Source: an uncultured Fidelibacterota bacterium (GTDB lineage Bacteria > Fidelibacterota > Marinisomatia > Marinisomatales > UBA1611). From it: a stretch of DNA of 64,000 nt. Positions within the stretch are counted from its first letter, which is position 1. Every line of letters begins with the position of its first letter. Shown in pieces: positions 11,059 to 22,409 of this stretch. The DNA lies in NCBI GenBank assembly GCA_902562835.1, contig CACEUX010000008.1:3726-67725 (forward strand), written 5' to 3'. The notes under the pieces were generated by a model. It was given only the letters and a program-made list of their open reading frames with translations. It made no database searches and had not been told where the DNA came from. Made by a program: the position numbers and the translations under genes.

Positions 11059-12003
11059 ATGAAAGTTATTTTGTTCTATTTCCTTCGTTTACTTTTAATT
11101 ACTTCTTTTGCAGTAATGCCTATTCAGGCTCAACTCCAAGTTGGAGATATTTCCCCTGATTTTAGTGGTCCAATGTGTATGAATGGAGAAGATGTTAACC
11201 CTGATATTGTAACAGGTGATTACTGGAGTTTATTCGAGGAAGGAGATGGAAAGGTTACATGGATAAACTTATTCACTTCATGGTGACCATCCTGTCAGGT
11301 GGAGGCTCCACAAACAGAAAGTATATGGCAGGACTTCTTAGCAGAAAATGAAAATTATCTTAATATAGTTGCCAATGGCTTTGACTGGACATCTTACACG
11401 TGTGCAGGGTGGGCCTCAGCATTTGGAATTACATATCCTATGATAGATGGTGGATCAAGTGGTGGGGAAGCTTGGAATCTTTTTGGAGATGGTTATATTC
11501 CTCACAATGTTGTTCTAGATCATAACCACGAGGTGCTTTACACATCCTCAGGATATAGTGAAGGTGCGATCATGGCTGCTATAGAACTTGGATTATCATA
11601 TGTTCCAAGAGATGAAGATGGAGATGGGATCATGGATAGTACTGATAATTGTATTGATGTTCCTAATGATGACCAATTAGACCATGATTTGGATGGTCTT
11701 GGCGATGCTTGTGACCTTTGCAACAACTTAGAAATATATGTTACTGGTAATATAGATGGGTCTGTTGGTATGACCGATCATAATCCAACCATAGATCTGT
11801 TTGATATACTTCGTTTGTCCGATATTGTCCTCTTGGGTGTAGATGAGGGCTGTGGCTATGAGATCAGTGATATTAGAGAAGATGGAGTTATAAACATTCT
11901 TGATATTATTACATTGGTACAGTACGTCCTCTATGGTGAATTGCCTGATGAGAATACAATCGCTATACCACCTAACGCATATCTCTTATCTGAAAATAAT
12001 TGA
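11059..12003 (+). CDS. Selenocysteine-containing TlpA-like thioredoxin-fold secreted protein (family B, copy 1) with TSP3 and dockerin-like C-terminus
   Basis: ORF 11059..11286 (signal peptide, ..WINLFTSW) and ORF 11299..12003 are in the same frame. They are separated only by TGA 11284-11286, which gives W-U-PSC-QVEAP. This aligns with WCxPC..E.P of TlpA-type redoxins. YIPHNVVLD is cis-Pro-like. DEDGDGIMDSTDNC..DHDLDGLGDACDLCNN is TSP3, and a dockerin-like tail follows. Confidence 0.82.
11284..11311 (+). promoter_or_regulatory. UGA(Sec) plus putative SECIS hairpin (copy B1)
   Basis: The hairpin GTGGA-GGC-TCCAC (11299-11311) starts 15 nt from the UGA. Confidence 0.55.
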
Positions 12004-15570: not shown

Positions 15571-16107
15571 TTGCGTTGGTGTCCTCGTTTTTTATCAGCT
15601 CAAGATAAGGTACCGAACATAAGACTTAAAATGATAAACGGTAAATACGCAAAATTATACGATTTTCTCAAAGAAGGACCTATGATAATTGATTTCTGGG
15701 CAACCTGGTGCGAGCCATGCAAAAAGCAAATGCGCTATTTAGACCTTTTCTATAATCATTTTAAACCATCTGGGTTTAATGTCCTCACGGTTAATACTGA
15801 TTCACCAAAAAGTATGAGCAAGGTAAAGCCTTATATTCGTACAAAAGGTTTTGAATTCAATGTTGCCGTAGATCCAAATAGCCAGGTGAAAAAGAGACTC
15901 AAAGTACAGGAAATGCCTACAACGATAATTATTGATCAGGATGGTTCAATATTGTATCGTCACAAGGGCTATGTTCCAGGCGATGAAGTTGGTATTCTAA
16001 AGGCTGTAACTGATATCCTTGATAAAAAAGGTATAGAATATCTACCTCTAGACCTCGATAAAGTCCAAGCAGTAAAGAAACAAGAGAAACTTAATATTGA
16101 TTTTTAG
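15571..16107 (+). CDS. TlpA-like thiol-disulfide oxidoreductase (Cys form), apparently frameshifted from its signal peptide
   Basis: FWATWCEPCKKQM active site and MPTTIIID cis-Pro. It is a close paralog of 19382..19960. As listed it has no signal peptide. A signal peptide (GTG 15549, MKRLIIIIALVSSF) lies in the neighbouring frame, across a T6 run at 15588-15593. Confidence 0.75.
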   Translation: MRWCPRFLSAQDKVPNIRLKMINGKYAKLYDFLKEGPMIIDFWATWCEPCKKQMRYLDLFYNHFKPSGFNVLTVNTDSPKSMSKVKPYIRTKGFEFNVAVDPNSQVKKRLKVQEMPTTIIIDQDGSILYRHKGYVPGDEVGILKAVTDILDKKGIEYLPLDLDKVQAVKKQEKLNIDF

Positions 16108-18507: not shown

Positions 18508-19374
18508 ATGAAGCAGCTCATTTCAATATTGATAATACCATTCTTTCTTAGTATTTCACCACTTGATGGTCAAGATGTTTACATGGAAGATTTTAGTGTA
18601 CCTATATGTGAAAACGGTAATGGAGAAGATACTCTACACTTTTTTGAAGCATATAATGGTGCATATAACGATTGTGGTTACAAGGTGATATTTGCCACTC
18701 TTTTTACCTCCTGGTGAGGATACTGCTGGGGGGAGGCTCCCCTCACACAGCAGTTATACGACACATATAATGACCAAGGCCTTGAAGTGGTTGCATTTGG
18801 AGCTGATTGGGGTGAGCCATATACTTGCCAACAGTGGATGAACTCATTTGATATTACATATCCCATTGCTGACTTTGAGACTGGCATGCCTAATTGGTAT
18901 CAAGAGGATATACCTATCAATCTACAGATGCATCAAATAGGTTGGGGCCTACCTTACAATATTATTATAGACCATAATATGGAGGTCATCTGGGGGGGCG
19001 TAAATGACATTGCTGAGGAAGAAGTATGGGAAGAGGCTGTTACAATGATAGAAAGTGCTCTGAATCATTTGAATGCGGAGGCACTCGTTGATAATGATGG
19101 GGATGGTATAGCTAATGAATGTGATGATTGCCCTGACTCACATCTATATACCTTAGGAAATTTTGATTTTTCAGAAGAAATCGTAGTTGATGGTCTTAAC
19201 TTTGTATATGCCCCTAGCATAGAAGTTTATGATCTACTTTTCCTTTCAGATCTAGTTAGCAGTGGTGATGAAATTTCACCATGTTATATTGAGGCGAGTG
19301 ATTTTACTGGTGATAATGCTCTGGATTTAATTGATATAATGGCTTTAGCTAGCTATATAGTAGAGGGTAATTAG
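18508..19374 (+). CDS. Selenocysteine-containing TlpA-like thioredoxin-fold secreted protein (family B, copy 2)
   Basis: ORF 18508..18717 (signal peptide, ..ATLFTSW) and ORF 18787..19374 are in frame. TGA 18715-18717 gives W-U-GYC-WGEAP, with stop-free sequence between the two ORFs. GLPYNIIID is cis-Pro-like. DNDGDGIANECDDCPD is a TSP3-like repeat, followed by a dockerin-like tail. Confidence 0.8.
18715..18744 (+). promoter_or_regulatory. UGA(Sec) plus putative SECIS hairpin (copy B2)
   Basis: GGGGA-GGC-TCCCC core (18730-18742), extendable to 18728-18744 with one G-U pair. The offset from the UGA is 15 nt, as in copy B1. Confidence 0.55.
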
Positions 19375-19381
19375 AAAAATC

Positions 19382-19960
19382 ATGACCATTAAGGCTCGAT
19401 ATGATATGCTTAGAAAGATATTTTTTTTTACAATGCTCTTTACATTGGCATATTCGCAAGGCAAGGTTCCAAATGTACGTCTAAAAATGTTAGATGGTAG
19501 CTCAGCCAAACTTTATGATTACCTCAAAGATGGGCCTATGATCATTGACTTTTGGGCAACTTGGTGTGAGCCATGTAAAAAACAGATGCATCATCTAAAT
19601 AAATTTCACCAGCATTTCAAAGATGCTGGATTTAAGGTTCTTACTGTTAATACTGATACTCCAAAAAGTATGGGCAAGGTGAAATCATATATAAGGTCAA
19701 AGAAATTCAAATTTTTTGTAGCTGTAGATCCTAATGGTCAAGTAAAGAAAAAATTAAAAGCAGAGCTCATGCCGACTACGATCTTAGTTGATACGGATGG
19801 CTCGGTGCTTTATCGTCATCAGGGGTATTACCCAGGAGATGAAGATAAAATATTAAAACATATCACGGACTATTTTGATGCAGCAGAAATAAGCTATGAC
19901 CCATACGATACTGAAAAGAAAAAACAGACAGCTAAAAAGCAAGTAGATATAGATTTTTAG
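19382..19960 (+). CDS. TlpA-like periplasmic thiol-disulfide oxidoreductase (Cys form)
   Basis: 192 aa with signal peptide (IFFFTMLFTLAYSQG), FWATWCEPCKKQM and MPTTILVD. It starts 8 nt after the family B Sec gene. Confidence 0.85.
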   Translation: MTIKARYDMLRKIFFFTMLFTLAYSQGKVPNVRLKMLDGSSAKLYDYLKDGPMIIDFWATWCEPCKKQMHHLNKFHQHFKDAGFKVLTVNTDTPKSMGKVKSYIRSKKFKFFVAVDPNGQVKKKLKAELMPTTILVDTDGSVLYRHQGYYPGDEDKILKHITDYFDAAEISYDPYDTEKKKQTAKKQVDIDF

Positions 19961-21617: not shown

Positions 21618-22409
21618 GTGAAAATTAAACTAATCATCACATTATTTTTAATGACGCTTTCTAGTGCACAAGTTTATGATGTGGGCGATTTTGCACCATC
21701 CGATTTTGGACTTCCTTGGTGTGGTAATAACCCAGCTGGTGATGATAGTTTATTTTTGAGTGCATATAATGGAGCTATCAATGAAACAGGCCGTCCCTAT
21801 GTCATATGGTTGACTGCTTTTACAACTTGGTGAGGATATTGTTTGACGGAGGCTCCTGTCACTCAAGAATACTTTGATCTCTATGCTGATTCAGGATTAG
21901 TTGTGATTGGAATGGGAGGCGACTGGGGCCAACCTTACACCTGTGAAGGGTGGGTAGACAACTTCGGTTTAGGTTACCCTATAATATCTGATGAGGATAC
22001 CTACAATGAATATGAATATGGAGGTTTAGGAACTAATTTATTTACAGATACTTGGGTTCCATATAATATGATAATAGATCATACAATGGAGATAATCTAT
22101 TCGTCATCTGATTATTATGGTCAGGAAGGATATGACCTAATTTTCGATAAGCTCTTTGGCGCCTTAAATAAATGTACTCTATGCACCTGCTCAGAAGTTC
22201 TTGGAGACATTGACCATACATATACCATTGATAATGAACCTATCATTAATATAATGGATTTGTTAAGGCTCTCGGATCTTATTACAACGGATACGCGAAT
22301 GAACCATTGCGAGAGAGGGCAGGGAGATATTACTGGAGATGGTGTTTTGAATACGATCGATCTTTTTGCTTTTGCAACCATGATCTCAGAAGGTGTCTTT
22401 GATAACTAA
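21618..22409 (+). CDS. Selenocysteine-containing TlpA-like thioredoxin-fold secreted protein (family B, copy 3; dockerin-like tail only)
   Basis: ORF 21618..21833 (GTG start, signal peptide, ..LTAFTTW) and ORF 21843..22409 are in frame. TGA 21831-21833 gives W-U-GYC-LTEAP. WVPYNMIID is cis-Pro-like. The C-terminus GDITGDGVLNTIDLFAFATMI is dockerin-like. I see no TSP3 repeat. Confidence 0.78.
21831..21860 (+). promoter_or_regulatory. UGA(Sec) plus putative SECIS hairpin (copy B3)
   Basis: GGA-GGC-TCC core with a possible bulged U and outer GAC/GTC pairs (21845-21860). It is weaker than copies B1 and B2. Confidence 0.4.

Follow-up and report, generated by a model that had tools for sequence, protein, structure and literature searches.

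In each of three paralogous genes of an uncultured Fidelibacterota bacterium (Fidelibacterota being the NCBI name for the Marinimicrobia), a short hairpin with the core GGA-GGC-UCC follows an in-frame UGA codon, and sequence comparison indicates that this hairpin is very probably the bacterial selenocysteine insertion sequence (bSECIS) of exported TlpA/Prx-like redoxins in which selenocysteine (Sec) replaces the first active-site cysteine (W-U-x-x-C). The three genes, here called B1, B2 and B3 of family B, lie on a 64,000-nucleotide stretch of DNA (hereafter the window; assembly GCA_902562835.1, contig CACEUX010000008.1, positions 3,726 to 67,725) from a metagenome-assembled genome (MAG) of 1.84 Mb with 36% G+C that is 77.7% complete. 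An earlier note on this DNA had linked UGA decoding to a hairpin acting at the RNA level, and three lines of evidence now support it, namely the restriction of the hairpin to Sec-encoding genes, the fixation of synonymous sites within it, and the covariation of its paired bases.

All three genes are complete only when a single in-frame TGA is read through, and alignment of the three paralogs places that codon at the first position of the thioredoxin-type motif F-T-[ST]-W-U-x-x-C-x-x-E-A-P. The encoded proteins have an AhpC-TSA/Redoxin fold with Sec in W-U-x-x-C, as in Prx-like UxxC selenoproteins, with weak Pfam scores around the cut-offs (24.9–32.2 bits for PF00578 and 22.5–28.1 bits for PF08534). 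No NCBIfam model scored above its cut-off for these proteins, and only the dockerin-like tail resembles Omp28_seleno. Public protein catalogues and gene callers hold only post-UGA fragments of family B, unnamed and 195–220 aa long (Table 1), the downstream open reading frame (ORF) of B1 having been started by the ORF caller at GTG 11299. The analysis confirms that the split-annotated B1, B2 and B3 are single genes, each predicted to encode an exported selenoprotein. B1 also stops on TGA, with no GGAGGCTCC after this terminal codon, so that UGA would be both a Sec codon and a stop inside one gene.

Numbered from the U of the UGA as position 0, the GGA-GGC-UCC core begins at +17 in B1, B2 and B3. 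Positions 14 or 15 to 19 pair with positions 23 to 27 or 28, and the loop occupies positions 20 to 22, beginning 17 nt past the UGA codon in the three genes and in all in-register homologs. The stem has 5 bp in B1, 6 bp in B2 and 6 bp plus one bulge in B3, and the 3-nt loop is closed by an A-U pair. The positions given in the earlier note, including the bulged U and the outer GAC/GTC pairs of B3, proved correct to the base, and the GGC loop and its offset are indeed common to all three genes. The distance of 15 nt after the UGA claimed there stands for B1 and B2 when counted from the U; it does not stand when counted from the A (12 nt in B1 and B2, 11 nt in B3), nor in B3, where the extra outer pairs start one base earlier, at +14. 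Orthologs L019 and L045 share the B3 form, with outer pairs and bulge.

Table 1. Coordinates of family B features and neighboring features. Positions refer to the window, except that entries with a C number lie elsewhere in the same genome.
Feature	Position	Strand	Description and basis
Gene B1	11059..12003	+	signal peptide, Redoxin/AhpC-TSA with W-U-PSC-QV-EAP, dockerin-like tail; TGA=U translation, Pfam, paralog alignment
B1 in-frame UGA, predicted Sec codon	11284..11286	+	aligned to Cys of Cys-form homologs
B1 possible lower stem CUGU/ACAG	11292-11295 with 11314-11317	+	folding prediction; not distinguished from Cys forms
B1 upper stem-loop	11299..11311	+	GUGGA 11299-11303, loop GGC 11304-11306, UCCAC 11307-11311
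B1 stop codon TGA	12001-12003		
Gene B2	18508..19374	+	W-U-GYC-WG-EAP, architecture as B1; translation, paralog alignment, Pfam
B2 in-frame UGA	18715..18717	+	translation
B2 lower stem ACUGCUG/CAGCAGU	18722-18728 with 18748-18754	+	7 bp, stable here (z -2.84)
B2 upper stem-loop	18729..18743	+	G18729.U18743, GGGGA 18730-18734, loop GGC 18735-18737, UCCCC 18738-18742
Gene B3	21618..22409	+	W-U-GYC-LT-EAP, architecture as B1; translation, paralog alignment, Pfam
B3 in-frame UGA	21831..21833	+	translation
B3 upper stem-loop	21845..21860	+	GAC-GGA 21845-21850, GGC 21851-21853, UCC 21854-21856, bulged U 21857, GUC 21858-21860
Post-UGA fragments of B1/B2/B3	window 11299-12003, 18787-19374, 21843-22409		gene callers
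Cys paralog of family B	G000:C18:15859-16602	-	FFTSW-C-PFC-QD-EAP
Further own-genome selenoprotein candidates	C4:18997(+), C15:36975(-, from contig 3' end), C13:21599(+), C11:45383(-, from contig 3' end), C5:72141-73067(-)		as listed: Prx TPG-U-IRQAC; TlpA-like W-U-PLC; HEY-U-GAC; DPCG-U-KKNPLGG; SelD GSG-U-ACK
9-bp hairpin in Cys-type TlpA-like gene (19382-19960)	19608-19629	+	CCAGCAUUU-CAA-AGAUGCUGG

The hairpin lies over the codons of the E-A-P motif. Codon +5 supplies its wobble base as G17, the Glu codon GAG contributes G18 and A19, the GGC loop consists of the final G of GAG and the GC of the Ala codon, U23 is the Ala wobble base, and the Pro codon begins with C24 and C25. Synonymous sites thus make up 3 of the 9 core bases. 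Position 26, the Pro wobble base, pairs with position 16, the middle base of codon +5, so that this pair joins a non-synonymous to a synonymous base. The change from U-A to G-C between B1 and B2, described in the earlier note, is real, Val GUG with Pro CCA in B1 being replaced by Gly GGG with Pro CCC in B2.

A profile search with stop read-through across 401 genomes of the phylum found family B in 298 of them; dozens of matches contain a single in-frame TGA, and dozens more are without one. From 130 fetched loci, codon-registered DNA taken after [WY]-[U/C]-x-x-C yielded 82 distinct Sec forms and 21 Cys forms. Scored as present when the four inner pairs and the loop G were in place, the hairpin occurred in register in 70 of the 82 Sec forms and in none of the 21 Cys forms (Fisher 9e-14), and a GGC loop was found in 71 of the Sec forms. 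Two results had been named beforehand as counting against the hairpin, its presence in Cys orthologs and its loss in other Sec orthologs; the former was not observed, and most Sec homologs retain it, with 12 departures that are discussed below. The two Cys paralogs that had been suggested as controls (15700-15740 and 19560-19600) are Cys forms, but of another TlpA-like subfamily (WATW-C-EPC-KK) without E-A-P; they are therefore weak controls, and their place was taken by genuine Cys forms of family B. The same genome also encodes a Cys-form paralog of family B, which means that Sec and Cys versions coexist in one cell, and the codons GAT GAG GCC CCT of this paralog do not form the stem.

A hairpin embedded in conserved codons might be no more than a by-product of x-E-A-P conservation in the protein, with no function in the RNA. 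Of the nine core bases, six fall at non-synonymous positions of the Glu, Ala and Pro codons, and E-A-P is kept as protein by Cys forms as well as by Sec forms with another SECIS. The earlier note had raised this overlap as a caveat, rightly insofar as the protein itself conserves E-A-P; only in Sec forms that carry this hairpin, however, are the synonymous sites of the stem fixed. Glu +6 is encoded by GAG in 73 Sec forms and by GAA in 2, compared with 3 and 14 Cys forms, respectively, whereas at Glu +11, five codons later in the same genes, GAA prevails in Sec forms (58, with 6 GAG) as in Cys forms (6, with 2 GAG). Likewise, Ala +7 is GCU in 72 of 76 Sec forms and mixed in Cys forms, and the wobble base of codon +5 is G in 74 of 82 Sec forms versus 2 of 21 Cys forms.

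Covariation points the same way. Pair 16-26 is C-G in 61, U-A in 9 and G-C in 3 Sec forms, while only 4 of the 21 Cys forms are paired there, and within Sec forms it tracks residue +5, with Ala, Ser or Thr (xCG) accompanied by CCG, Val GUG by CCA, and Gly GGG by CCC. Given 77 Sec sequences and no prior structure, RNAalifold returned exactly the 6-bp hairpin. Covariance across more homologs, the check advised in the earlier note, bore the hairpin out, with a covariation score of 0.306 in Sec forms against a shuffle mean of 0.123 (reached by 0 of 500 shuffles). Paired cells amounted to 90.3% in Sec forms and fell to 20–45% in slid registers, while the 40.5% of paired cells in Cys forms equaled that of shuffles and slides. 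Single homologs illustrate how pairing is maintained through changes of residue: L038 (GUG/CCA) and its sister L054 (GCG/CCG) differ by a compensated pair, the replacement of Glu by Gly (GGG) in L048 turns A-U into G.U with pairing kept, and L086 keeps a G.U pair despite replacement of Pro by Leu (CUG).

On a protein tree built with the hairpin-encoding residues masked, well-supported branches show at least 6 switches between Sec and Cys (11 by parsimony), and all Cys lineages nested among Sec forms have lost the hairpin pattern. The type of pair 16-26 switched at least 6 times, every switch being compensated. In the 6 well-supported Sec/Cys contrasts the hairpin accompanies Sec in 4–5 and the reverse is never seen; because there are just 6 such contrasts, the independent-contrast sign test reaches only p ~0.06.

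The lower stems below the hairpins of B1 and B2 were considered as part of the element and rejected. CUGU/ACAG is paired in ~79% of Sec cells versus ~71% of Cys cells, and since pairing is about as frequent in Cys forms, we do not claim the lower stem. It shows one compensated event only, and L046, an ortholog from the same genus, has lost the strong lower stem seen in B2.

Beyond the phylum, a scan of one genome per species for TGGTGA-N6-TGY-N5-GGAGGCTCC returned at least 118 loci. Nearly all of the matches listed, which comprise 118 distinct sequences, are genuine open W-U-xx-C-xx-EAP redoxin genes; they place the core in at least 20 named phyla, including Acidobacteriota, Actinomycetota, Armatimonadota, Methylomirabilota, Myxococcota, Planctomycetota, Chloroflexota, Nitrospirota and Calditrichota, at a locus G+C of 31–79%. 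Among these 118, pair 16-26 is C-G in 71, G-C in 23, A-U in 13 and U-A in 8, with 3 mismatches, giving 115 paired sequences compared with a mean of 59 and a maximum of 73 in shuffles. Pairing extends outward at 15-27 (109 paired; shuffle mean 56), 14-28 (101; shuffle mean 48) and 13-29 (85; shuffle mean 61). Further residues at +5 fit the same rule in these matches, namely Arg CGG with CCC, and Gln CAG, Glu GAG and Lys AAG with CCU.

A second, unbiased scan, in which the E-A-P codons were left degenerate, supplied a pan-bacterial Cys control: none of 105 W-C-xx-C-xx-E-A-P Cys genes has the in-register stem (Fisher p = 8e-8 against the Sec genes of that scan). The Cys scan used TGC for the first Cys and is therefore biased to high GC (mean G+C 0.65), a bias that makes the control conservative as regards GAG, NNG and CCG, though not as regards GCU, the Ala codon in 9 of the 105. 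The complete lack of the stem in these Cys forms argues that the hairpin is not a by-product of E-A-P codons. With the Pro wobble base covarying with the middle base of codon +5 in all four Watson-Crick types, we regard an origin in protein conservation as very improbable.

The sequence GGAGG within the 5' half could instead act as an internal Shine-Dalgarno (SD)-like element, pairing with the 16S anti-SD to cause a pause or a restart after the UGA. It is a core SD sequence and stands 14–18 nt past the UGA in B1, B2 and B3, and the GTG start assigned by the ORF caller in B1 would agree with a restart. However, the 3' half (UCC and its flank) is as conserved as GGAGG itself, and the flanks of GGAGG covary as base pairs. 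L078 (ACU GAG UCU CAG) keeps four pairs in register around a GUC loop with GGAGG gone, and L048 has GGGGG in its place. No in-frame start codon lies at SD distance downstream of GGAGG, and conservation of the protein continues through the UGA, where homologs have Cys. There is accordingly little to recommend an SD-like function, and we judge it highly unlikely.

A third possibility is that the UGA does not encode Sec, being recoded as Trp or Gly (code 4 or 25), read through by a near-cognate tRNA with stimulation by the hairpin, or part of a split pseudogene. SelA and SelB were not found in this 77.7%-complete MAG, and the public catalogues contain only the downstream pieces. Against this, in-frame UGA is rare and is also used as a stop, and long ORFs are open under table 11. 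The UGA coincides exactly with the codon of the catalytic Cys, with which it alternates on the tree as described, and its conservation in dozens of genera rules out pseudogenes. The genome encodes a tRNA-Sec with anticodon UCA (Rfam RF01852, 64.6 bits) and SelD (380 bits, with an in-frame UGA of its own), and an adjacent selA-selB pair is present in 10 of 10 tested relatives carrying family B, 3 of them of the same genus. A meaning of UGA other than Sec thus seems scarcely credible to us.

Several points nevertheless weigh against reading the hairpin as a bSECIS, beginning with the SelA and SelB genes missing from the MAG itself. The 12 Sec homologs of the phylum without an in-register hairpin mostly have a different hairpin nearby, but a convincing alternative was not found for each (L082, L072), and in the unbiased scan only 11 of 36 real Sec genes with E-A-P carry the in-register stem. 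The pattern of the first pan-bacterial scan fixes the 9-nt core, so only the outer pairs are free observations there. With 60-nt fold z-scores of -0.40 (B1), -2.84 (B2) and +0.48 (B3), B1 and B3 fold no more stably than shuffled sequence, so that stability is unable to carry the argument. A GGC loop without a loop U also means that SelB recognition as known from E. coli or Moorella cannot simply be assumed here. Finally, the support is computational, and for family B both the binding of SelB to the GGC loop and the actual incorporation of Sec are what we infer from it.

Thermodynamics alone would be insufficient to exceed chance, and on the alignments at hand we take the comparative evidence to be decisive. 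With the hairpin enforced, the minimum free energy (MFE) over 45 nt is -9.2 kcal/mol for B1, -18.4 for B2 and -8.9 for B3, and the isolated upper hairpins are weaker (-5.5 for B1 and -4.2 for B3). The 9-mer GGAGGCTCC occurs in 5 copies in the 1.84-Mb genome, 3 of which are at TGA+17 in B1, B2 and B3.

The SECIS elements of E. coli fdhF and Moorella thermoacetica fdhA are experimentally and structurally characterised SelB ligands, with loop Gs ~20–23 nt from the U of the UGA and a minimal functional upper helix ~11 nt past the UGA. Those of the fdhF type have a GGUC apical loop with an essential G and U (U24) and a bulged U in the 5' strand. The B hairpins resemble them in placing the loop Gs at a similar distance on a short upper helix, but differ in having a GGC loop without a loop U and no 5' bulged U, the bulged U of B3 being on the 3' strand. 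The defining features of the E. coli fdhF type were thus not found in B1, B2 or B3; the B hairpin would work like the fdhF SECIS and is outside its sequence type. Searches against Rfam likewise gave no SECIS match, either across the window at the gathering threshold or in the surroundings of B1 and B2 at E<=10.

The B hairpins agree more closely with the general bSECIS model of Zhang and Gladyshev (bSECISearch), which, as drawn in one figure (PMC13188914, Fig. 2), has an apical loop of 3–9 nt on an upper stem of 4–16 bp, at least one G in the first two loop positions with a preferred pattern N1-G-[G|U]-N-N2, a spacing of 16–37 nt between UGA and apical loop, and an MFE of -7.5 kcal/mol or lower. 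In family B the structure lies in the coding region directly past the in-frame UGA of three conserved ORFs, with a 3-nt loop on stems of 5–6 bp (6 bp in the consensus of 77 homologs). The apex reads A-GGC-U in all three genes, the spacing is 17 nt, and the MFE given above for the enforced hairpin lies below the limit in each. The UGA stands opposite Cys in homologs, and the structure is confined to Sec forms. Measured against the ranges in that figure, the B hairpins are near the minimum, with their 3-nt loop, their stem of 4–7 bp and a spacing one above the lowest value.

As for the protein, family B most likely belongs to the Prx-like thiol:disulfide oxidoreductases (PF00578, UxxC), described as a predicted selenoprotein class (PMC13188914), or to the Prx-like 1/3 classes of the Global Ocean Sampling (GOS) data (PMC2398784), a placement based on the descriptions of these classes. 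Insofar as those classes are described there, family B shares with them a thioredoxin fold, weak PF00578/PF08534 scores, the UxxC motif, marine abundance and the existence of Cys homologs. Family B additionally has a signal peptide and, at the C terminus, a dockerin-like module. No paper on this hairpin or on Marinimicrobia selenoproteins specifically was found, subscription journals lying outside the coverage.

Family B uses more than one SECIS. Sec forms of Actinomycetota with W-U-xx-C-xR-EAP-AVAEV lack the GGC hairpin and have CUGC-GGUC-GCAG ~26–41 nt past the UGA, with an E. coli-like GGUC loop at about +29 (L290, L292, L296, L346, L353, L357 and others). In these forms the E-A-P codons vary freely (e.g., GAA GCC CCU), which constitutes a natural control: where another SECIS serves, E-A-P is retained at the protein level, and GGA-GGC-UCC is an overlay at the RNA level. 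The GGA-GGC-UCC hairpin is present only where it acts as the element after the UGA, and E-A-P is a feature of the protein fold. A deep clade of the phylum itself (L090–L094) consists of Sec forms with S-A-S-W-U-G-P-C and GUA or AGUUG loops 24–32 nt past the UGA, so that the SECIS has been replaced within family B.

Other predicted selenoproteins of the same genome also have short hairpins at nearly the same offset as the B genes, including CGG-GUU-CCG in a Prx gene, an AGUUG loop in a TlpA-like gene and a GGUCU loop in one gene. Each of the further candidates in Table 1 has a short hairpin with a G-rich loop 19–25 nt past the UGA. Family A, a GOS_C/Omp28-related selenoprotein encoded at the same locus, has GCGA-GUU-UCGC after its UxxC motif, with the loop at +22; this hairpin is similar to that of family B in offset and shortness but differs in sequence, loop (GUU versus GGC) and protein family.

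Two further observations were made alongside these. In L073 (G245:C8:20852-21659) the active site reads W-U-U-P-C, encoded by TGA TGA CCC TGC, where its sister L074 has TGA GGA; the tandem TGA stands either for two Sec residues or for a stop mutation in a copy that is decaying. The stable 9-bp hairpin in the neighboring Cys-type TlpA-like gene (Table 1) lies in a 60-nt stretch with a fold z-score of -3.6 and is absent from the paralog at 15571-16107.

Under the bSECIS reading, the mRNA would fold into a short G+C-rich stem of 4–7 bp, composed of the second and third bases of codon +5, the GA of GAG, the U wobble of Ala, the Pro codon CCN and the first base or bases of codon +9, and capped by the GGC triloop, read as A-GGC-U. 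Once the UGA occupied the A site, the stem would have its base, 10–12 nt past the UGA, at the mRNA entry channel, and SelB.GTP.Sec-tRNA(Sec) held on the apical loop would decode UGA as Sec, out-competing release factor 2. A stem located within coding sequence limits residue +5 to amino acids with NNG codons whose middle base matches the Pro wobble and locks Glu and Ala to GAG and GCU.

It is possible, though we would put it forward only tentatively, that GGA-GGC-UCC represents a distinct, sequence-invariant SECIS class, tied to W-U-xx-C-xx-E-A-P, whose GGC(U) apex without the canonical loop U is read by SelB and which has been inherited or transferred with the redoxin gene across at least 20 phyla. 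If true, this would define an RNA family absent from Rfam, would allow annotation pipelines to rescue thousands of mis-split exported selenoproteins, and would offer a natural series of compensated variants for studies of SelB specificity.

The B hairpin is the kind of element expected after a Sec codon, with unusually clear comparative support, and our understanding of how bacterial Sec insertion works is unchanged by it. What it adds is the quality of the covariation and a redoxin family with several interchangeable SECIS solutions. For annotation, it exposes a systematic mis-annotation of exported family B selenoproteins. As an instance of dual coding it is unusually clean, with an RNA stem that fixes three synonymous sites and restricts residue +5. 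At least two to three SECIS solutions exist in this one family, namely the GGC triloop with its core at +17, GGUC at ~+29 in Actinomycetota, and AGUUG/GUA in the deep clade, and such diversity bears on how SECIS elements are replaced in evolution.

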